Source: Giardia intestinalis (Eukaryota). From it: a DNA stretch of 64,000 nt. Positions 52,459 through 64,000 of the stretch are shown here, piece by piece. The stretch lies in NCBI GenBank assembly GCA_000002435.2, contig CM018793.1; one strand, 5' to 3'. The notes under the pieces were generated by a model, which was not told the origin of the DNA, did not search any database, and was given only the letters and a program-made list of their open reading frames with translations. A program made the translations under genes and the position numbers. Position 1 is the first letter of the stretch, and each line of letters starts with the position of its first letter.

Positions 52459-54588
52459 TTAACAGCAGCACTCCAACCTTTGTAGTACTTCGTTCGAGAG
52501 GAGGGAGACTATCTCGTGGCATCCCCATAGCTTGGCCATACAAAGAGCATCTCCTCCCGTACTGTCTCTCAGACTCTTCTCTCTCACGAGGAGCTTTACA
52601 CAGTCAATACTACCAATTTTCATAGCAAACATAAGAGCGGTCCATCCCGTTTTCTCCTTCATGCCAGCTTCCTTGTCTACGAGTAGCCTAACACAATCTA
52701 CGTGACGATTCTGCGCAGCCCACATGAGAGCGGTCATCCCGTCAGTCCTCTGCATACCACCCTCCAGCTCCACAAGTAATTTGACGCAGTCTGTGCGGCC
52801 GAGCTCTGCAGCGCACATGAGAGCGGTCCATCCATTGCCATCTTGCATGCGGCTTTCCTTTTTCATGAGTAGCTTAACACAGTCTGTATAACCACGACCT
52901 GCTGCAGCCATGAGAGCTGTAGTTCCGTTATTATCTTGCATACATATCTCCTTCCTTAGTAAACTCCTGGCGCAGTTCGAGTAGCCATTACCTACTGTGG
53001 CCATAAGAGCCGTTCCTCCATTGTTATCTCTCATACCTCCTTCCCTTTCCAGCAAAAGCTCGAGACAGTCTATGTGACCAGTTCTTGCAGCCCATATGAG
53101 GGCCGTCCACCCGCTATTATCTCTTATGCCCCCTTCCTTCTCCAGTAGCAGCCCCACAAGTTCTGTGTGACCGTGTATCGCTGCTCTCATCAGGGCGGTC
53201 CCTCCGCATATCTTCCATCTGTCCACATGTGTGCATCCCTTCATCTGCATGCCTCCCTGGAGCGGTATGAGGGTCTTCACTGCCTCCACGTCGTTTCTGT
53301 CAACGGCCCTCATGAGGTCGGTGGAGTCGTCCTCTTCGAGATGCTCCTCCTCTGTGTCCTCTATATTGTCTGTCTCGTCTGTCGTATCTATTGCATCTAC
53401 TGTGTCTGTCGTATCTGTCGTATCCGCTGTATCCGTTGCATTCCACGCGTCCCCCATGCCTATCTTCATCCATATCTCCTTTACCTTCTCAAGCGTCTTG
53501 GAGGTCTCACCAAACTGCTCCTTAGGGATATCTGCCCCTGCGGATTTAGCAGCAAGCTCCTTCTCAAGAGATAGGATCTTGTTGTTGGCATCATTCAGAG
53601 CAGCCTCCAAAGATGCGCATCTGTTCCTCAGTGCTTTATCTTTGGCTTCCTGTTCATCAGGAGGGCCGTTGAGCATCTGAAGCAGACGGACAAGCCCTCT
53701 GGCTGTCGGCCTCCTCTCTGGATCCAGCACGAATATCCGCTCCAGAACACTCTTTATGAAGCCGTCGGTGATGCCACTCAGATCGGGCCTCCACCCATCG
53801 ACGAAGACATCCTCTGGTTCTCTGCCCCCCAAGAAGTCCGGCTTCCTCAGGGTGGCGAGCTCGTATGCTATGGCCCCAATGCTCCAGATGTTGGACGCGG
53901 GAGTTATGATACCGCGGAGGAGCGTCTCGGGGGCCATGTATGCGGGGTCGCCGGTCTTCGTAGCCCAGCTCGACATGCCCATGCAGAGTTCGAAATTCGC
54001 AAGAACAATGTGCCTCCTATTTTCTGTGAATAAAATATTGTCAGGCTTGAAGATAACACCAGGAAACAGGCTGCCGTGGACACCATTGATGGGATCATGC
54101 AAGTAGATAAGGCAATTAGCAAGGTCTCTTACAAGGGAAAGTACCAACCTCTTAGGAATAGGCTTATGAGTTTCTCTGTAATTAGTGATCAACTGCTGAA
54201 GGTCTCCGCAGCGGCGGTCCATGATAATAAAAATCGTATTGCGACTCTTAATTATCTTGCCGCAGCTGAGAACATCCGGATAAGAGGTGTTTGGAAGAGC
54301 GACTAGCTTGAGTTTGGCAGCATCTACACTATACTGGTCTGGATCATCAGGCCGGATCTCCTTCGCGGCAAGGTGAGGGTATCCTTTAAGAGAGTAGATA
54401 GTACTGTAGGCATCCTTGCTGAGCACGTCACCCAGGCACCTGCGCAGCTTCTCGGGACTGAACATGGGGACGTCATCTGTATCCACCAGCCCCGCAAAAC
54501 CACTAGCTGACCCCTCAGTAGGACTCCTTAGAGTGCTATGTGCGGCGGATGAGGTAAGGGGGTAAGACCGGCAGTCAACAGCCATCAT
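52459..54588 (-). CDS. NEK-family kinase-like protein with C-terminal ankyrin repeats (predicted pseudokinase)
   Basis: The first ATG (MMAVDC) is at 54588, preceded by aaaattaaaagta (the track start 54684 is GTG). The kinase fold spans ~nt 53671..54447 (LAAKEI, DPAYMAPE, SNIWSIGAIAYEL). HRD is replaced by G-V-I (GVIFKPDN) and DFG by NFE. A coiled coil, a DT-rich acidic linker and at least seven GGTALM/GWTALM ankyrin repeats follow. Confidence 0.85.
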   Translation of the reverse strand: MMAVDCRSYPLTSSAAHSTLRSPTEGSASGFAGLVDTDDVPMFSPEKLRRCLGDVLSKDAYSTIYSLKGYPHLAAKEIRPDDPDQYSVDAAKLKLVALPNTSYPDVLSCGKIIKSRNTIFIIMDRRCGDLQQLITNYRETHKPIPKRLVLSLVRDLANCLIYLHDPINGVHGSLFPGVIFKPDNILFTENRRHIVLANFELCMGMSSWATKTGDPAYMAPETLLRGIITPASNIWSIGAIAYELATLRKPDFLGGREPEDVFVDGWRPDLSGITDGFIKSVLERIFVLDPERRPTARGLVRLLQMLNGPPDEQEAKDKALRNRCASLEAALNDANNKILSLEKELAAKSAGADIPKEQFGETSKTLEKVKEIWMKIGMGDAWNATDTADTTDTTDTVDAIDTTDETDNIEDTEEEHLEEDDSTDLMRAVDRNDVEAVKTLIPLQGGMQMKGCTHVDRWKICGGTALMRAAIHGHTELVGLLLEKEGGIRDNSGWTALIWAARTGHIDCLELLLEREGGMRDNNGGTALMATVGNGYSNCARSLLRKEICMQDNNGTTALMAAAGRGYTDCVKLLMKKESRMQDGNGWTALMCAAELGRTDCVKLLVELEGGMQRTDGMTALMWAAQNRHVDCVRLLVDKEAGMKEKTGWTALMFAMKIGSIDCVKLLVREKSLRDSTGGDALCMAKLWGCHEIVSLLSNEVLQRLECCC

Positions 54589-57500
54589 TACTTTTAATTT
54601 TACAGTACAGTTTACTCTCCGTTTCACTGGGTAAATCTCCCATGCGAGCCAGCGCCGCCCTGGGCAGGTCTCTTGCTTACTCACTAACCGAAATCCAAAT
54701 CCAGACTTCGCAAGTCAAACGTCGTCCACTTCAGCGGGAGAAGAAGCCCAAATGGGGAAGTCGGTGGTCCAACGCCTAGCCCTCTGCGTCCCCAGTAGAC
54801 AACAAACCCGCGGCTGCTCCCACGAGTGAGCCGCTGAGGAAGGCCTGCGGGGACTCGAAGAAAAGAGTCTAGAGAGCATCCAATAGAATGAGCAGGAGGG
54901 CCAGGAGACAGGAACAAGAGAGCTCTAGCATCTTCCTCTAGCGAACCTCCCTGTCATGGAGAAGGGTGTATGGTGGCTGAGTGTGGGGGTTGTAAACCTA
55001 GAGCAATCGCCGGGTCGATGGCTTCAGCATGGCTTTCAGCAAGATGTAGCAGGGAATCCGAACCAGCTGAGCATTGGACCAGGTCCTGGATAGGAGCTAA
55101 GGGCTCCTGTGCACGGCTGGGCTGCTCTCTAGATGGGACAGGGCACGGTGAGCTGGACGGGTGTGATACTATAAGGTATCTATAGTTGTATCGATACAAC
55201 TAGTAGGCCCACACTGGACTCTGAGAAGTACACTGCTAGACAGGCTGGAGAAGCCTGAGGGGCGATAGCACCATCTTGTTATCGCTATGCAGTGCTCTGT
55301 GGGCATGCATTCAAGACATCATCCCCTGGTAGCCGGGGAGGGGACAGAGTCAGGCGGTAGTGAGCATGCCCATCAGAATGCCTCTAGGTACTGACCAGCC
55401 ACTCCCTAGAAGCGCAGATGTCTCGGCTAGGTTGCATCACATCCAGAGCAAAAGAGGAAGCTGTACTGTCCTATTTGTTTCTCAGAACAATGTGCGAATA
55501 GAAGGCGGCCCAGCGACTGATACTCTGCACCGTCCTCTTCATCCACAGCCTGAGCAGCCAGATGCCAGGCTCAATATGAAGACGGAGGCTGCGAAGAGTA
55601 AACTCACCACGGGGCCGATTGTCTGACACCAAAAAATCCGAAAGGACGACAGTAGCTGCTGTCTCCTTGAAGAGTGCATCACACACAGTATCGACCTTGG
55701 TCTCCTAGACGAACACTCTAGAACATTCTACACTAGCCCTGACTTCTGAGGCATTAAACCCTATAACTAGCACAGAGTGAGGCAACAGCATGCAGACGGT
55801 GCGTTATCTTCATAGATGTGTACTACAGCTTCCGACTGCATATGGATGTACCGAGATGGGCAGTTTGACCGGCTTACATTGGCGACTTGTCCGTCACCGT
55901 GTTTGCTGCGATGAGAAGCTGCGTCTGCCCGGCAGACTGAGCATAGATTACAGCAGCTTCTCTGCTGATGCATGTATGGCCATGCGCCGCCCTAGTAGGT
56001 GGCGTAAATACCATAATGCCTAACCTGTCTGTTGTTAGCGGAAAATAGCAGTTAGTCGTGTTAGAGATGCCTCTAAGTAAGCCTCTAGTCTTTGTGCCTA
56101 CTCCTCTACCAATTATAGTGACGACCGTATATTCAGAAAGACTACGGAACTCTCCACCGTCTCTCAAGGAGACTAACGGCTCATGCATGGGCTAGCGACG
56201 GAGGCCCATGAACTACCTACTACGAGCCTAGCTTACTGAGCAGTCTGGATCACAGTGCACTTGATAAGCATCTATGCACTCATTTGGATGCTCACTACTA
56301 ATACTGACAAGACTACAAGGAGGTTTGCTTTTGGTCACACTCCCCTCATAATGCTTAGCCCTTGGCACCACATTTCAACGAAGGAAGATGTTAGGTAGGT
56401 ACGCAAAAGGCTATTTGTGCACGGTGGTTCCTGGAGAGCAAGTTTGCACAAAGACTGTAAAGGCGACTAGCAGATCAGTGAGGTAAGCCTGACGTTATAG
56501 AGACAAGCTGTAGATCCGGATTGCAATGGGGACGCCTGTGGTGTCTCTCTGGCCTTCGAGTGTAGAAAAATCGCGAGGTCTGCAGACAGGTGAAGCTAGT
56601 TTTTGATTTATGCGCTTATAGCAGTGTAATATTTATTGGGACCTGTTTCGTCTGAGGCCGAAGACGTTTATCTTTTCTCCGTATACAAGCAAGGATCTAC
56701 TGTAGAGATATACTGTGCAGGCCAGTACCAATCGACGTGGTTGCTATTAGCAGGTGTCTCACTTGCACCTTCTCATAACGGGTAGCCATCAGCAGCGTCC
56801 TCGGCCCACGTGACATTCTAGATGCATCTCTGCCTTTGACCAAAGATTGACACACGCGTTGTGTAGTTTAGATTGCTCATCAGCCAGAGTGGCGTGGCTA
56901 CCCCTTATCCTCTACTTGTCTATCTCGTACAACCATTGCTGATGGCCTTTCCAGATTAGCATGCAAATGCTCTTATCGGTCCCACAAAGGCATACGTCAT
57001 ACAAATAATCACTACAGTCTAGGGTCCTGTCTACCAAAGAAAAGGCCAACCAGTTTACCACGTAGGCATTCATTGTGCATCTCATATAGTCTGGCAAGTC
57101 TTGTGCTCCCCAACATTCCCTCGCAAGCCCTCAGCTAAAGCCCGTATGCATATCGTTATTGACAAGCGCCTTAGCTTCATCTGGCCACTTAGGGCGTTAG
57201 ACCCTTTGCCTTGTACAATGAGTATACTCGGCGTGGGAGGTATACAATCAGCATCGGCCTTTTCTGCTCGTTGTCCGTATGATACTGTTGTTGCTTCTTG
57301 ATTCAACCAGCAACCTAGTTAATGGCTCAAGAGTAGGTGATAGCCCGCCAACGGGCAGTCAATAGTGGCCATAACGCATACCTTCACCAAGGCACAGCCT
57401 CCCTGAGCAGAGCACAAAAGTGGACCCTGCCATTCTGCGGCCCTACTATTCTCTTGAATAACAGGATCAGAGCAGCTCATGGTTAGTATTAGCTGTCTTC

Positions 57501-59357
57501 GGGTCTCCACCTGTCCTTATTGTCTGAGGTATGCTTGACTCCGTAGATTCGAAAGATGCTGTACTGTACTCGTACCTGCAAGCCTCAGCCAAGCAAGGCT
57601 ACCATCTTGAAGGCTTGGCAGTGATGAGCCACACAGTCGGCGGGATCTGCAGAGAGCATTCATCCCAATGAGCCTTTTACTTGTCGTATACAGGTTGTGG
57701 CTGTGACCTCATAGGCGCAGGACTTTCTGGAATAACCGGTCAACTACAGAGTCTGTCCACTCATGTAAAGCCACCTGATAGAGGGCGATATCAATCTCGT
57801 CACTCGTCTACAACATACACCAGTCGAATCTCACAGATGAACAAGGGCCACCCAGCCCGCAGCACTAGACATTAACAGATATCCTTCACGACAAAGGGGG
57901 TGAGCGACTAGTAGACCACAGCAGTCGCCTGCCCATTGAAGATCTTCCAGTCACTGACCTAGGTCAGCTTCCTACAAGATCTTGAGAGCTTTATTAGAGG
58001 TGCATGCTTATAGAATCCCCAACTCAAGGTGCATGCTGTCGGACCCTGCTATTTTTCACATCAGCTCGTAGACATCGGTTCTTTTGATCTCTAGTGGGGT
58101 CACGGGGGATCGCAAGATATGGTTCCCTCAGTAAGGCTTTATCTGACTCCTGTAGCTATATGACAGGAGGATACCGGTCTTCTATGGATTATTTAACGCA
58201 TGCTAAGGTGCACCAGTACAAGTCCTACAGTGTGGCATGATTCGTGAGTCAAAAGGTAGGATGCTTGGGCTGATTGGCGTGTCTCCTCGGGACCAAATAC
58301 AGCTAGGACCAAAGGTCATGAACGAATGCTATTCGATTCCCTTATCAGCAGATGGGGGTCAACTGCTCTAGTATCCACAAGAGGCTATAGAGGGTACTGG
58401 ACCAGGCATCCGGCCAATTGCTGGCAAATCAACACAACCTCCTTGGATCTCCATTCTTTCCTCACAGGCATCTACATGTAGGAAGCTCTGAGGACCTAGA
58501 GCCCTACACTAACAGGCTCAAGGTATTGCACTCCTAGGTGCTTCCATTAGTGGTGGTAGTGATAGCACCAGGATGATCCAGAAGGGGGATAGAAATCCTG
58601 CCCCGTTAGCTCAAGAAATGGCACAGTTTGAGCAGGGTTTCCTCCTTGTTTAAATTTGGGAGTACTAGCCTACGCCCTCTGACCATCTGACGCCTTATCA
58701 TGCGATGGGGAATCTTAATAGTATCCACTACAAAAAGCCAGAAATAGCACCATGCACACCCAACAAACCAGAGCGTCTCATAGGCTAATCTACACTGATT
58801 CGCACTTCCACGGACCCTAGCGACCACTGTAACCGTCTCTCGGGATCTTGCAAGGGACTGTCCTTGAGCGCGATTCCTCCATGACAACCAGAAGTCGCAG
58901 ACATAGTCCAAAGGGATGAGAATACTATAGAGGCGGAGAAGAGATCATCTGCGCACGGGGGTCCGCAGGGGCCCGACCCGCACAGGGAAGGCGTAAGAGG
59001 CCAATTCCCCAGGAATGCAGAGACATTAAGAGAGGAACCAGCAGTGGGCCCATAACACAGGGAGGTCACCCGGGCCGCCCCCTGATTGGCCACAGGGTAG
59101 AGGAGCAGCATGCGCGCGGGACAGCATTGCTACTTATTTTTGAATTTTCTGTTTCCCTGCATGTTGTGCAGGGGTCCGCGGTGGGTGCTAGACTATAGTT
59201 AGTAGATGCTTTCGGCATTAACAACTATCTCTTGTACAACAATATTATCAAAAAGGGATTTCTTTAAGCTGGCAGCATAGCAATAACCGAATGGAGCTTT
59301 TTAGCTTTGGGTATCTTTGCTAGTAGGATTCTTGATAGTGGATTAAGAAGAATCTCA
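54589..59357. other. ORF-poor tract (4.8 kb) between the NEK gene and the VSP
   Basis: All six frames are interrupted. The longest ORF in the track here is 108 aa, none has a recognisable motif, and I saw no internal tandem repeat. The rest of the window is mostly coding. Confidence 0.7.
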
Positions 59358-59365
59358 ATGTTGCT
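59356..59365 (+). promoter_or_regulatory. VSP initiator-type motif caATGttgct spanning the start codon
   Basis: The 10-mer is identical to the one at 26043..26052. Confidence 0.55.
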
Positions 59366-60617
59366 GATAGCTTTCTATCTTGGGCTGAGCGCCCTTGCGG
59401 CACAATGTAAGCAAGTACAAAATTGTGCAGCAGGTAAGTGTGAGATGGTTGGCGGCACTGAAATTTGTACAGAATGCGCGACAAATGGAAACGTTCCTAT
59501 CAATGGGGAGTGTACACCAAAAGGTAATGCGGCTGATAAATGCAAGAAAGTTAACGGTAATGAGCTTGTTGACGATAAGACATGTGGAAAATGTGAGAAC
59601 ACATACTTCATGTACAAGGGTGGATGCTATCAACTTGGCAGTGATGTCGCACTCCTCATCTGCAACGATCAAGCTGCTTCACCTGGAGGGCGTAATGCTG
59701 TTGCTGGCGTTTGCACAGAATGTAATGCTACTGGGGGATTCTTCAAAAGCCCAGAGGCGGCCGACACGACAGATTCCTGCATATCGTGCAGTGATACAAC
59801 TGGAGTGCAGGTTAATGGCGGTAACACGTATAAAGGTATCGAGAATTGTGTAGTATGTGCAGCTCCAGAAAGAGGAACAGGTAACGAAAATAAGATTGCT
59901 GCATGTGAGTCATGTCTTGAAGGATTCTTCGTTGCATCTAACAAGGCAGTATGCACACGTTGTACTGATAATGATAATTGCGCTAAGTGTGATGCAGGCG
60001 AAAACAAGTGCACAAAATGTAAGGCAACAGCCAGCAAACCATATCTAAAAAAGGGCGAAACCGAGGACTCTAATACATGTGTTAATAGTAACGAATGTAC
60101 TACTGATAAAACTTACTTCACTGATGATACTGACGACCCTACTCATGGAAAGATGTGCAAGAAATGCTCAGAAGGGATAGCAGACTGTAAGAAATGCGCT
60201 CCATCATCACCTTCTGCTTTAGCTACAGTATCCGCAATTGTGTGCACAGAATGTACAACACAGACCAACAAACCCAATGTTGCCGGAACAGGGTGCTTCA
60301 CATGCTCCGTAGACGGATGTAGTAACTGTAGCGAGAATGACGTATGTGAAAAGTGTGGACCTAACAAGAAGGTGAGCCCCGGGAGGAAGTCATGCGTGGA
60401 TAGCTGTCCCGAGAACTCCATTGACGATAACTCTGTCTGTACATGCAGCAGTGGGTACAGCCCTGACAGCAGTGGGGCCTCCTGTGTGTCCACTGGCAGT
60501 AATAGGAGCGGGCTCTCCACGGGGGCCATAGCGGGGATCTCCGTCGCAGTCATCGTCGTCGTCGGGGGTCTCATAGGGTTCCTCTGCTGGTGGTTCGTGT
60601 GTAGGGGGAAGGCGTGA
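59358..60617 (+). CDS. vsp: variant-specific surface protein (VSP), left copy of the inverted pair
   Basis: The first ATG is at 59358 (the track start 59307 is TTG). Signal peptide MLLIAFYLGLSALAA, many CXXC motifs, a GGCY motif (YKGGCYQLG), and the C-terminus GLSTGAIAGISVAVIVVVGGLIGFLCWWFVCRGKA. Confidence 0.95.
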   Translation: MLLIAFYLGLSALAAQCKQVQNCAAGKCEMVGGTEICTECATNGNVPINGECTPKGNAADKCKKVNGNELVDDKTCGKCENTYFMYKGGCYQLGSDVALLICNDQAASPGGRNAVAGVCTECNATGGFFKSPEAADTTDSCISCSDTTGVQVNGGNTYKGIENCVVCAAPERGTGNENKIAACESCLEGFFVASNKAVCTRCTDNDNCAKCDAGENKCTKCKATASKPYLKKGETEDSNTCVNSNECTTDKTYFTDDTDDPTHGKMCKKCSEGIADCKKCAPSSPSALATVSAIVCTECTTQTNKPNVAGTGCFTCSVDGCSNCSENDVCEKCGPNKKVSPGRKSCVDSCPENSIDDNSVCTCSSGYSPDSSGASCVSTGSNRSGLSTGAIAGISVAVIVVVGGLIGFLCWWFVCRGKA

Positions 60618-60631
60618 CTTAGGTAGTAAAC
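60617..60631 (+). terminator. VSP 3' motif plus poly(A) signal ACTTAGGTAGTAAAC
   Basis: It overlaps the last base of the TGA stop and is identical to 27617..27631. Confidence 0.8.
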
Positions 60632-61074
60632 ACGTCACTGTATATGGCTTATTACGCTATTCTGCCGGGGCTATCTGAGGATCGCCCAGAGGTCGTGCGA
60701 GTGATCCTCGCTCAAGCTCTGACCAGTCTAAGGACGAGGGTTGGTCATGAATAACATGACGGAGAGCCCTCTCCAGTGACACATCCAGAATCTGGGCATT
60801 CCTCGCCGCTCCATGAGGATATGCTCTGTCTGGATGTCCATGCCGATCTATCTTGGATTCAGGCCTTCTCGCAGGCTCTCTACTCTACCCGTGGCGCCTC
60901 TCCATGGTCTTCCTTCGTGGTGGGTGAAGCTCCGGTCGCTGTTTTTTAGATGCTCCTGTCTGTCAGGGGCTGCCACCGGGCTCTCCGCTGGCTGGGCCCT
61001 CGGTGTCCGTCCGGCTGTGGCCCGGGCAGCGCTCTACGGTCGCGGTCACTTGGGTCTCAGTGGGTTCGGATGGT

Positions 61075-61135
61075 GGGGAGGCGAGGGGAGTTAGGGCGGT
61101 GAGGCCGGAGGGGCTGGAGGGGCTGGAGGGGCTGA
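61075..61135 (+). repeat. G-run tract with a 9-bp GGGGCTGGA tandem at the inner end of the left arm
   Basis: Six runs of at least 3 G lie in ggggaggcgaggggagttagggcggtgaggccggaggggctggaggggctggaggggctga. It is mirrored as a C-run tract at 62737..62797. Confidence 0.8.
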
Positions 61136-61147
61136 GGTTGGTGGTGG

Positions 61148-62724
61148 TTGTATGCGCCTCTGGTCCCTCGATAGACTGGGGTGATCGCAGCTGTGGTGAC
61201 TGGGGGCTGTCCATCTGTGACTCACCCCTCTGTGTGCTCGTGGTCTGTGAGTGCCTCCACCCAGACAACCCTCAGGAGCCGTGCACACCAGGACAGAGAG
61301 GGTGACAGAGGAGAGTCAAGCAGCCCTGCCACGAGGGTGCACAGCAGCCAGCCTGGGCTGCAGGGCCCGCTCGAGCGATGGTAGTGACAGACGACTCCCT
61401 CTGACAGCAGCCCTGGTGACTGGCACTGGTCTGCTTTCGAGGCTGAGTGACAGTGTGCACAGATGGACATGAGTGCAGGAGGACCATCCACACACGGACA
61501 GACTGTGCCCCCATACGAGAGCGCCAGGCAACCACCCGAGCACCCGAGAGGCAGCAACAGACACGGGCACTAGAGATCCCCAGCCAGACAGCTGCCATGC
61601 TCATCCATAGGGGCATCAGAGGACCAGGGGAGTCACCCTCACAATCAGGGTATGATAGGAAGCCAGAGGACTCAAACACTACAGCATAGCAGATCCAAGG
61701 GAGGCACACTCCAGCAGGCGAGCAGTGGCAGAGCCCTGATAGCTGCCAGCCCCCCATGACACCCAGGCAGGCACCAGGCTCACCGAAGGCTCTGCTGGCC
61801 TCCACCGATGATCCGAGGGGGCAGCAACCAGAGGAGTGGGGAGGCCTTCGGACACCACAAGAGGCCCGGCTGTCCAGCAGGCGATGGAGCACAGGTGGCC
61901 TCTGAGCACCATACAGGCACAGAGCCGACCATCAGAGTGATGCCCGATCAGAGACGACCACGAGCACCCTCCACCGCACTCTGAGGGGCTGTCGATCATC
62001 CCACTGCCTCTCATAGCAGACCTCCTTGAGAGCAGTGCAGTGGGTCCCAGCTCATGCACGCCTCCCCTGGCATAGGACACCCCGGCTCTCCCCGAGGGGT
62101 CATCAGAGCCACGAGAGGTGTCAAGGTCCTGGTAGATCACACCGGGAACTCCCCGAGGGCACAGCAACTGAGATATGAGTGACCCTCAGTGTGCTCCTCT
62201 CTGATGGTAGAGCATCTTGAGACCAAGGGGGTCACCTCTGCCTACGGACGACACACAGCACTCCACAACAAGGACCCACTAGGAGCAGCACAGCTGACCA
62301 CGGGGACAGTGCAGTCACCAGTGCCCCACCGTGCCAGTTTTCTGGGCCATCATACTATAGGCATGAGAGAACCCCATCCCATCCACAGGGTCATCCATGC
62401 CCCTGCTGGCCCGAGGTGAACTCCCCGTCGAGGCGCTGGACAGGGCATGCCAGGGGCTCAGCAGACCCACAGAGAGAATCAGCGAGTAGCAGGAGGGGCT
62501 GCGATGGCCTGCCTCAGCCCTCACGTACCAGCCAGACAGAGAGACAGTACTGCCTGAGGCATGCAGGGGCCAAGGGAGGCGATCAGTCAGGGGACACGAC
62601 ACGATCGTCGGTGCCTGTGTCTCGGGAGTGCAACGAAGGCTGGAGATCAGACACAGCCACCTTAGCAAACAGAGTGGGGACAACCCACCACCCCAATAGC
62701 CCACCGAACCCAGAGGCACATACA
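61148..62724. other. spacer of the inverted VSP pair (1,577 bp, GC-rich, strand-skewed)
   Basis: It lies between the two identical arms. The first ~110 nt on each side are still recognisably but imperfectly homologous. I could support no credible gene. Confidence 0.75.
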
Positions 62725-63240
62725 ACACCACCAACCTCAGCCCCTCCAGCCCCTCCAGCCCCTCCGGCCTCACCGCCCTAACTCCCCTCGCCTCCCCACC
62801 ATCCGAACCCACTGAGACCCAAGTGACCGCGACCGTAGAGCGCTGCCCGGGCCACAGCCGGACGGACACCGAGGGCCCAGCCAGCGGAGAGCCCGGTGGC
62901 AGCCCCTGACAGACAGGAGCATCTAAAAAACAGCGACCGGAGCTTCACCCACCACGAAGGAAGACCATGGAGAGGCGCCACGGGTAGAGTAGAGAGCCTG
63001 CGAGAAGGCCTGAATCCAAGATAGATCGGCATGGACATCCAGACAGAGCATATCCTCATGGAGCGGCGAGGAATGCCCAGATTCTGGATGTGTCACTGGA
63101 GAGGGCTCTCCGTCATGTTATTCATGACCAACCCTCGTCCTTAGACTGGTCAGAGCTTGAGCGAGGATCACTCGCACGACCTCTGGGCGATCCTCAGATA
63201 GCCCCGGCAGAATAGCGTAATAAGCCATATACAGTGACGT

Positions 63241-63255
63241 GTTTACTACCTAAGT
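63241..63255 (-). terminator. VSP 3' motif plus poly(A) signal ACTTAGGTAGTAAAC
   Basis: The reverse complement of gtttactacctaagt is acttaggtagtaaac, mirroring 60617..60631. Confidence 0.8.
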
Positions 63256-64000
63256 CACGCCTTCCCCCTACACACGAACCACCAGCAGAGGAACCCTATG
63301 AGACCCCCGACGACGACGATGACTGCGACGGAGATCCCCGCTATGGCCCCCGTGGAGAGCCCGCTCCTATTACTGCCAGTGGACACACAGGAGGCCCCAC
63401 TGCTGTCAGGGCTGTACCCACTGCTGCATGTACAGACAGAGTTATCGTCAATGGAGTTCTCGGGACAGCTATCCACGCATGACTTCCTCCCGGGGCTCAC
63501 CTTCTTGTTAGGTCCACACTTTTCACATACGTCATTCTCGCTACAGTTACTACATCCGTCTACGGAGCATGTGAAGCACCCTGTTCCGGCAACATTGGGT
63601 TTGTTGGTCTGTGTTGTACATTCTGTGCACACAATTGCGGATACTGTAGCTAAAGCAGAAGGTGATGATGGAGCGCATTTCTTACAGTCTGCTATCCCTT
63701 CTGAGCATTTCTTGCACATCTTTCCATGAGTAGGGTCGTCAGTATCATCAGTGAAGTAAGTTTTATCAGTAGTACATTCGTTACTATTAACACATGTATT
63801 AGAGTCCTCGGTTTCGCCCTTTTTTAGATATGGTTTGCTGGCTGTTGCCTTACATTTTGTGCACTTGTTTTCGCCTGCATCACACTTAGCGCAATTATCA
63901 TTATCAGTACAACGTGTGCATACTGCCTTGTTAGATGCAACGAAGAATCCTTCAAGACATGACTCACATGCAGCAATCTTATTTTCGTTACCTGTTCCTC
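63255..64000 (-). CDS. vsp: variant-specific surface protein (VSP), right copy of the inverted pair, 5' part outside the window
   Basis: The minus-strand frame is open to the window edge. The visible ~248 codons are identical to codons of the left copy (…GTGNENKIAACESC…CWWFVCRGKA). The track lists only the part from the internal Met (63255..63719). Confidence 0.9.
   Translation of the reverse strand, partial: GTGNENKIAACESCLEGFFVASNKAVCTRCTDNDNCAKCDAGENKCTKCKATASKPYLKKGETEDSNTCVNSNECTTDKTYFTDDTDDPTHGKMCKKCSEGIADCKKCAPSSPSALATVSAIVCTECTTQTNKPNVAGTGCFTCSVDGCSNCSENDVCEKCGPNKKVSPGRKSCVDSCPENSIDDNSVCTCSSGYSPDSSGASCVSTGSNRSGLSTGAIAGISVAVIVVVGGLIGFLCWWFVCRGKA

Follow-up and report, generated by a model that had tools for sequence, protein, structure and literature searches.

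The tail-to-tail vsp107 gene pair of Giardia intestinalis: a catalogued inverted repeat whose identical arms are probably maintained by gene conversion

Why would two copies of a surface antigen gene lie tail to tail, a few kilobases apart, and not differ by a single base wherever they can be compared? The question is raised by the right-hand end of a 64,000-nt stretch of Giardia intestinalis DNA (contig CM018793.1 of assembly GCA_000002435.2; the whole stretch is hereafter called the window), where a complete gene for a variant-specific surface protein (VSP) faces the 3' part of a second copy on the opposite strand. A first-pass annotation, made from the letters alone, singled out this arrangement as a potential source of long hairpin or double-stranded RNA (dsRNA), and held the identity of the two copies to reflect either very recent duplication or ongoing gene conversion. 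Here, we show that the locus is the pair vsp107.1/107.2 (GL50803_00d14331/0014331) on chromosome 5 of G. intestinalis WB, and we assign a probability of about 0.85 to an overall account in which this known pair consists of independently expressible copies, owes its continued identity to conversion and is one member of a family of similar cassettes. Both the class and this particular pair are already known and have been catalogued twice in the literature. What appears to be new here, judged from sequence comparison, is that the orthologous locus of the DH isolate also holds an inverted pair with near-identical arms, and that the 3' flank and spacer form a repeat family common to other VSP loci.

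A repeat search across positions 56000-64000 of the window returned a single inverted pair, with arms of 1275 nt each (Table 1) and 1579 nt lying between them. The arms are exact reverse complements of one another, with 0 mismatches over the 1275 nt in a direct string comparison, and a perfect inverted repeat of this length cannot be attributed to chance. The left arm comprises the terminal 746 nt of the VSP open reading frame (ORF) including the stop codon, the motif ACTTAGGTAGTAAAC and 529 nt of 3' flank, and the right arm mirrors this content, in good agreement with the roughly 745 nt of coding sequence (CDS), stop, motif and roughly 530 nt of flank that the first-pass annotation had given for each arm. 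The same annotation had placed the arms at 59872..61147 and 62725..64000, with no mismatch in the parts compared; the identity stands, while the inner ends were one base too long, the first mismatch being 61147 G opposite 62725 A. Past the inner arm end there is a 1-nt indel followed by 15 matching nt out of 16, after which the similarity stops abruptly. The right arm does run off the window, as had been pointed out, and its outer end lies beyond 64000; the visible start of the left arm at 59872 is thus set by the window end cutting the right arm, and the outer ends of both arms fall outside the window. The pair therefore presents itself with 746 nt of visible CDS identical in two tail-to-tail copies, 2637 nt between the ORFs (60618-63254), an identical flank of 529 nt and an abrupt divergence beyond it.

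The window locus can be equated with the vsp107 pair because the ORF values, the 529-nt divergence point and the spacing of 2637 or 2638 nt all match published entries. Adam et al. 2010 (BMC Genomics 11:424, PMC2996952) place vsp107.1/107.2 (gene GL50803_14331) on chromosome 5 as two identical genes lying tail to tail, listing for vsp107 a product of 419 aa and 43.2 kDa with 46 Cys and 15 CXXC and an initiator (Inr) CAATGTT (their Additional file 1), together with a 3' divergence 529 nt past the stop and 2638 bp between the ORFs (their Table 5). In Table 2 of Xu et al. 2020 (Sci Data 7:38, PMC7000408), which concerns assembly GCA_000002435.2, the pair d14331/14331 on chr5 appears as -> <-, with 419 aa and 2637 bp. 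This is the same locus without any difference, of which the window shows just 746 nt of the right copy, and the earlier statement that tail-to-tail inverted vsp pairs had already been reported is borne out by these lists for the type of pair as well as for the locus itself. The gene has also gone under the older names AS1/S3.

The vsp107 pair is far from alone in the genome. A survey later than these lists finds about 40 of the 136 VSPs to be paired, in 20 pairs that are identical at both the nucleotide and the amino-acid level and of which 13 are tail-to-tail and 7 head-to-head; no identical vsp genes outside inverted pairs were found by Adam et al. 2010 (PMC2996952). In the identical inverted pairs described by Adam et al. 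2010 (PMC2996952) and Xu et al. 2020 (PMC7000408), the ORFs are separated by 2-4 kb, and the flanks stay identical for 139-729 nt before they diverge abruptly. The vsp1267 pair and the other approximately 19 WB pairs likewise consist of identical inverted ORFs a few kilobases apart with flanks that are identical up to an abrupt divergence, and the tail-to-tail pairs among them share a similar geometry, with 3' divergence mostly at 486-559 nt and a distance of 2.4-3.2 kb; they differ from the vsp107 pair in their VSP coding sequence. Giardia muris has 7 identical inverted pairs as well, and its tail-to-tail spacers hold pseudo-ARP-2 genes, unlike the vsp107 spacer, in which no domain is detectable with Pfam. 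For some pairs the published lists conflict on orientation: Adam et al. 2010 give vsp1267/112208 as tail-to-tail and a 2022 preprint as head-to-head, and 119706/119707 is given as <- -> in Xu et al. 2020 and as tail-to-tail in the 2022 preprint.

The genes themselves have the features of typical VSP genes. The left copy encodes a product of 419 aa and 43.19 kDa with 46 Cys (11%) and 15 CXXC, which matches the Pfam family VSP (PF03302) with an E-value of 1.9e-26 and 93.3 bits against a cut-off of 31.4. Its N-terminus, MLLIAFYLGLSALAAQC, looks like a signal peptide, and its C-terminus has the make-up of VSPs, with the conserved hydrophobic transmembrane segment followed by CRGKA (the translation ends in ...GAIAGISVAVIVVVGGLIGFLCWWFVCRGKA). 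The ATG lies in CAATGTT, which fits the PyAATGTT context of VSP starts, and the motif at the stop codon fits the extended poly(A) signal ACTYAGRTAGTRAAY; according to the literature, every one of the 136 VSPs has the extended consensus ACUUAGRUAGURAAYRY, the median distance to the stop being 6 nt. The product shows 100% identity to the G. intestinalis WB protein deposited as KAE8305600.1, KAE8305601.1, XP_001705960.1 and XP_037902306.1, the first two being consecutive accessions with one sequence from a contig of 4,018,654 bp. The full-length identity of the two copies is taken from these two accessions, which share one protein sequence, and from the literature, where both genes are annotated as complete, with 419 aa, in the PacBio assembly GCA_000002435.2 (Xu et al. 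2020, PMC7000408). On this evidence, both copies would be complete VSP genes that can be expressed independently of each other, each being equipped with an initiator and, at the stop, a poly(A) signal. Normal mRNAs would end a few tens of nucleotides past the stop, without crossing the spacer, an end point that is to be expected because of the poly(A) signal at the stop and the published data on other VSPs.

A different course of transcription underlies the hairpin proposal, in which a read-through RNA crosses the spacer, reads the partner in antisense and folds into a stem of at least 1 kb, which Dicer then cuts into small RNAs of 25-26 nt that help to silence this or related VSPs. The geometry makes this possible, since the arms are perfectly complementary, and the sequence offers few other places to stop: past the proximal signals, neither strand of the 2637-nt inter-ORF region has an AGTRAA hexamer, and a read-through RNA would first meet one in antisense within the CDS of the partner (corresponding to 60122), which would give a stem of about 1 kb. 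The literature additionally reports alternative polyadenylation about 1.3 kb downstream for some VSPs, abundant antisense VSP RNA, and a role of Dicer, Argonaute and RdRP (RNA-dependent RNA polymerase) in VSP control. Against this stand the strong, family-wide extended poly(A) signal at both stop codons and the published behaviour of VSP1267, a paired gene whose mRNA ends 24 nt past the stop and reaches a very high level in clones. Further, GL50803_14331 is one of two VSPs reported to be up-regulated in cysts and still up after excystation, and the palindrome therefore does not keep this gene silent. Mutually exclusive expression applies to all VSPs, although most have no partner and 7 of the 20 pairs are arranged head-to-head, and sense transcripts exceed antisense transcripts in only 12-20% of VSPs, in a survey that pools paired and unpaired genes. 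Our literature search found no paper linking inverted VSP pairs to small RNAs, hairpins, or spanning or convergent transcripts. Taken over both sides, the hairpin proposal is geometrically possible and otherwise unsupported, and we consider it unlikely.

Known loci of the hairpin type make the same point by comparison. Hairpin RNA (hpRNA) loci of Drosophila and inverted pseudogene loci of mouse oocytes are likewise inverted duplicates that can fold into long dsRNA in organisms equipped with Dicer and Argonaute. In those systems a single transcription unit runs over both arms, and small RNAs have been mapped to them. The vsp107 pair differs in that each arm has its own strong poly(A) signal and both copies are intact, expressible genes. 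A hairpin-RNA locus is a single unit with no efficient 3'-end signal between its arms, and here a poly(A) signal follows each stop codon. Any dedicated regulatory function of the palindrome would be conjectural.

A wider form of the idea would treat the whole cassette as a generator of antisense RNA or dsRNA, fed by read-through or by initiation at an A-tract in the flank, whose small RNAs would bias the silencing or switching of VSPs. The candidate antisense start sites are the A-tracts in the flank core, at 62924-62930 (+) and 60942-60948 (-), each of which would point into a VSP. They belong to the only A/T tracts of at least 7 nt in the 2637-nt inter-ORF region, TTTTTTA at 60942 and TAAAAAA at 62924, both in the flank core, in a window where such tracts average 3.4 per kb. 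We regard this wider form as distinctly improbable. If the hairpin reading were true, the locus would be an RdRP-independent genomic source of VSP dsRNA, and it would tie a feature of the repertoire that Adam et al. called 'cryptic' (2010, PMC2996952) to the disputed RNA interference model of antigenic variation.

A further question is why the arms are identical, and here a second isolate can be compared. The contig L003 belongs to assembly GCA_000498715.1, which we take to be the DH isolate of assemblage A2. Two metagenome contigs, L001 and L002, are 99.9% identical to L003 where collinear, with 99.7% in a part of L001 in which the spacer is flipped, and all three contigs share the left flank of the window (54969-58008) at about 93% identity. 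The order in L003 is VSP, flank, a spacer of 1792 nt oriented as in the window, and right arm, of which 484 nt precede the contig end. Within these 484 nt the two DH arms match at 482 positions, and both mismatches lie within 26 nt of the inner end. The comparison between isolates that had been proposed at the outset thus yields the pair in DH too, with arms identical at 482 of 484 positions over their visible part. Between WB and DH, the identity amounts to 91.1% in the 5' flank, 97.9% in the CDS up to its nucleotide 514, 93.0% in the remainder of the CDS, which lies within the arm, 77% in the arm flank and 89.4% in the spacer.

Additional loci place the pair in a broader context. The translated spacer ORF, although non-coding, served as a search handle for paralogs and recovered nine ORF clusters in metagenome assemblies, among them two contigs of about 6 kb, L004 and L005, from the same sample as L001. 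L005 carries a different VSP, of 506 aa, and has only two parts in common with the window: 59000-59380, comprising 5' upstream sequence and the start (81%), and 60501-62214, comprising the 3' end, flank and spacer (80%). In L004 (313-2951), the spacer, preceded by the 3' end of a VSP and its flank, leads into a degenerate relic of the inverted flank, 77-88% complementary with one perfect patch of 77 nt. The partner VSP is absent; next come a gene for a Mec-17 acetyltransferase and a further VSP. In a five-way alignment of the flanks, the motif TTGTATGTGCCTCTGG marks the end of the inverted repeat at every locus. The spacers of WB, DH, L004 and L005 are all 88-90% identical to one another, and the WB flank is nearer to that of the paralog L004 (82.5%) than to that of its DH ortholog (75.6%).

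These relations suggest that a single palindromic unit was ancestral to the tail-to-tail cassettes, that VSP and flank sequence has been exchanged between loci and then homogenised inside the pair, and that arms probably decay after the loss of a partner, as in L004, where a complementarity of 77-88% is what would be expected once conversion stops. Published remarks that the intergenic sequences between duplicated VSPs are highly similar are consistent with such a cassette family.

The two explanations first offered for the identity of the arms can now be told apart: conversion is to be preferred to recent duplication because the arms differ by 7-23% between WB and DH, yet are identical or nearly so within each genome. 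A very recent inverted duplication, which would have had no time to diverge and would need no ongoing conversion, does account for 100% identity over 1275 nt, and Adam et al. 2010 (PMC2996952) proposed that the duplications may be relatively recent. It sits badly with a DH locus that has the same pair, a homologous spacer and the same end motif at 7-23% divergence from WB in the arms, with paralogous cassettes that end at the same repeat boundary, and with the identical pairs of G. muris, and we hold it to be very improbable. Of the alternatives put forward at the start, conversion is therefore retained and recent duplication is set aside on the strength of the DH pair.

The preferred account would run as follows. 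The pair and its spacer would be older than the split between WB (A1) and DH, and recurrent intrachromosomal gene conversion between the inverted copies would keep the arms identical, with an occasional import of sequence from other VSP loci followed by homogenisation within the pair. The layout of VSP, flank of about 0.5 kb, spacer of about 1.6 kb, flank and VSP would represent one member of a cassette family of common descent. Were identical copies to lie in direct orientation, deletion would remove them; inverted copies would persist, recombination between them merely flipping the spacer.

Large palindromes, such as the ampliconic palindromes of the human Y chromosome and the inverted repeats of plastids, are kept identical by arm-to-arm gene conversion. 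They likewise have kilobase-scale arms around a unique spacer, an arm identity far above the divergence between lineages, and a spacer that can flip. The vsp107 pair differs from them in its much smaller scale and in having an antigen gene in its arms; in its case, conversion is deduced from two lineages only and flipping is a possibility.

On present evidence the locus exemplifies a known class and is itself catalogued; what is added here is modest and lies in the comparison. The comparative gain concerns a pair that is probably older than the WB/DH split and kept by conversion, with apparent exchange with paralogous loci, and a flank and spacer that form a conserved cassette family with a sharp repeat boundary and a conserved non-coding core. 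These comparative results bear on the evolution of the VSP repertoire.

Several points weigh against this account. Of the DH right arm, just 484 nt are visible at a contig end, and since near-identical repeats may be collapsed by short-read assemblers, the identity within DH is weaker evidence than that within WB. The WB and DH loci are taken as orthologous on the basis of their shared left flank. This flank, at 91-93% identity, and the region as a whole fall far short of the 98-99% usually quoted in the literature for A1 versus A2, and the spacer divergence is about the same for ortholog and paralogs, so that the region has no simple history. For the outer arms, which comprise the promoter and the initial 514 nt of CDS, the identity is literature-based, as these parts lie outside the comparison within the window. 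Finally, that deletion bias favours the inverted orientation, and that the mRNA at the vsp107 locus itself would end at the proximal poly(A) signal, are points that we infer.

The flipped spacer of L001 raises the further possibility of an invertible segment, whose 1.58-kb spacer would be turned round by recombination between the arms to give two functionally distinct isomers, as in a switch. Relative to the same left flank, the spacer of L001 is indeed opposite to that of both DH and WB (L001:8957-11168 compared with L003:11823-14034), in a contig 99.9% identical to DH. The path of an assembly through an identical inverted repeat is arbitrary, and the flip may be a choice of the assembler; the difference between L001 and L003 could reflect recombinational flipping between the arms or, equally, such an arbitrary path. 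No spacer ORF matches Pfam, the spacer itself is without a recombinase gene or an Rfam match and nearly devoid of A/T-rich tracts that resemble a promoter, and both flanking genes encode the same protein, leaving a flip without obvious consequence. We find a functional switch scarcely credible. Site-specific invertible DNA switches have a recombinase gene and short recombination sites on either side of a segment with a promoter; the locus does not fit this type, given the lack of a Pfam match in the spacer ORFs, the kilobase arms and the lack of any spacer A/T tract of at least 7 nt.

An assembly artefact, in the form of a collapsed or mis-joined repeat, is effectively excluded by two independent published assemblies, one of them from long reads: identical pairs did end contigs (Adam et al. 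2010, PMC2996952) and such pairs were formerly suspected as artefacts, but the geometry is reproduced by the Sanger assembly, with 2638 bp between the ORFs, by the PacBio assembly, with 2637 bp, and by the DH and metagenome contigs.

The conversion-maintained cassette remains the account we favour, and its non-coding parts can be described further (Table 1). The spacer gave no sign of coding potential, which was rejected on four grounds: the eight spacer ORFs tested had no Pfam match at E<=1; a first-order Markov null accounted for the ORF lengths, with 219 codons, the length of the longest open frame, at about the 95th percentile; substitutions among paralog spacers were even over codon positions (24-29 each); and indels of 1-2 nt were frequent. 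The long ORFs on the - strand of the spacer are accounted for by composition (A 14% on that strand). No match to known RNA families was found in Rfam at E<=1 across 54-64 kb, and the spacer had no internal palindromy beyond chance.

The 3' flank is more heterogeneous. In the five-way alignment, its proximal part of about 270 nt, from the stop to the core, is poorly conserved (55-70%), and is followed by a core of about 180 nt that is about 90% conserved in the DH ortholog and in the paralogous loci (L003, L004, L005). A folding test of this core gave no signal of RNA structure (z -0.45 and -0.78), and a coding function is made unlikely by indels whose lengths are not multiples of 3. Base composition is uniform from the spacer through the right flank (61147-63254; T about 14% on +), with the sole break at 61146/61147. 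As this break falls at the left junction, it hints that the right copy together with its downstream sequence may be the parental unit and the left arm the inverted duplicate.

Table 1. Positions of the vsp107 pair, its repeat arms and neighbouring features in the window.
Feature	Position	Strand	Basis and remarks
Left VSP gene, complete, 419 aa, ends CRGKA	59358..60617	+	ORF and translation; TGA stop at 60615-60617
Right VSP gene, 3'-terminal 746 nt, stop at 63255-63257	63255..64000	-	Remainder beyond the window
Initiator/Kozak-like CAATGTT around the ATG of the left copy	59356..59362	+	Context TCTCAATGTTGCTG; equals the Inr listed for vsp107.1/107.2
Extended VSP poly(A) signal ACTTAGGTAGTAAAC, left copy	60617..60631	+	Motif scan; overlaps the last base of the stop codon
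Extended VSP poly(A) signal ACTTAGGTAGTAAAC, right copy	63241..63255	-	Motif scan; mirror of the left signal
Left arm of the inverted repeat	59872..61146	+	Exact reverse complement of 62726-64000; true arm reaches further left
Right arm of the inverted repeat	62726..64000	-	Truncated by the window end
3' flank inside the left arm, 529 nt, GC-rich, A-poor	60618..61146	+	Composition and five-locus alignment; equals the published 529
Conserved non-coding flank core, ~90% identity in ortholog and paralogs	60880..61060	.	Mirror at ~62812-62992
Tandem repeat GGCTGGAGG x3.6 near the inner arm end	61103..61134	.	Tandem Repeats Finder; mirror at 62738-62769
Single-copy non-coding spacer, 1579 nt, 61% GC, T-poor on +	61147..62725	.	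Repeat family common to other VSP loci, from sequence similarity
NEK kinase/ankyrin-repeat gene, left context	52459-54684	-	Pfam

The neighbourhood to the left of the pair shows some larger differences between the two isolates. An insertion of about 3.1 kb upstream of the VSP is present in DH and the metagenome contigs (L003:2619-5714) and absent from WB (window 54937-54969), and contains an ORF with a weak match to reverse transcriptase (RVT_1). Synteny is lost to the left of 54633, where WB has the NEK kinase/ankyrin gene and DH has a Peptidase_C1 gene and an EGF-like ORF. The 4.6 kb upstream of the VSP (54700-59300) hold no ORF of at least 110 aa, in a window that is otherwise densely coding, in line with the scarcity of genes that Xu et al. 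2020 (PMC7000408) report for the surroundings of VSPs.

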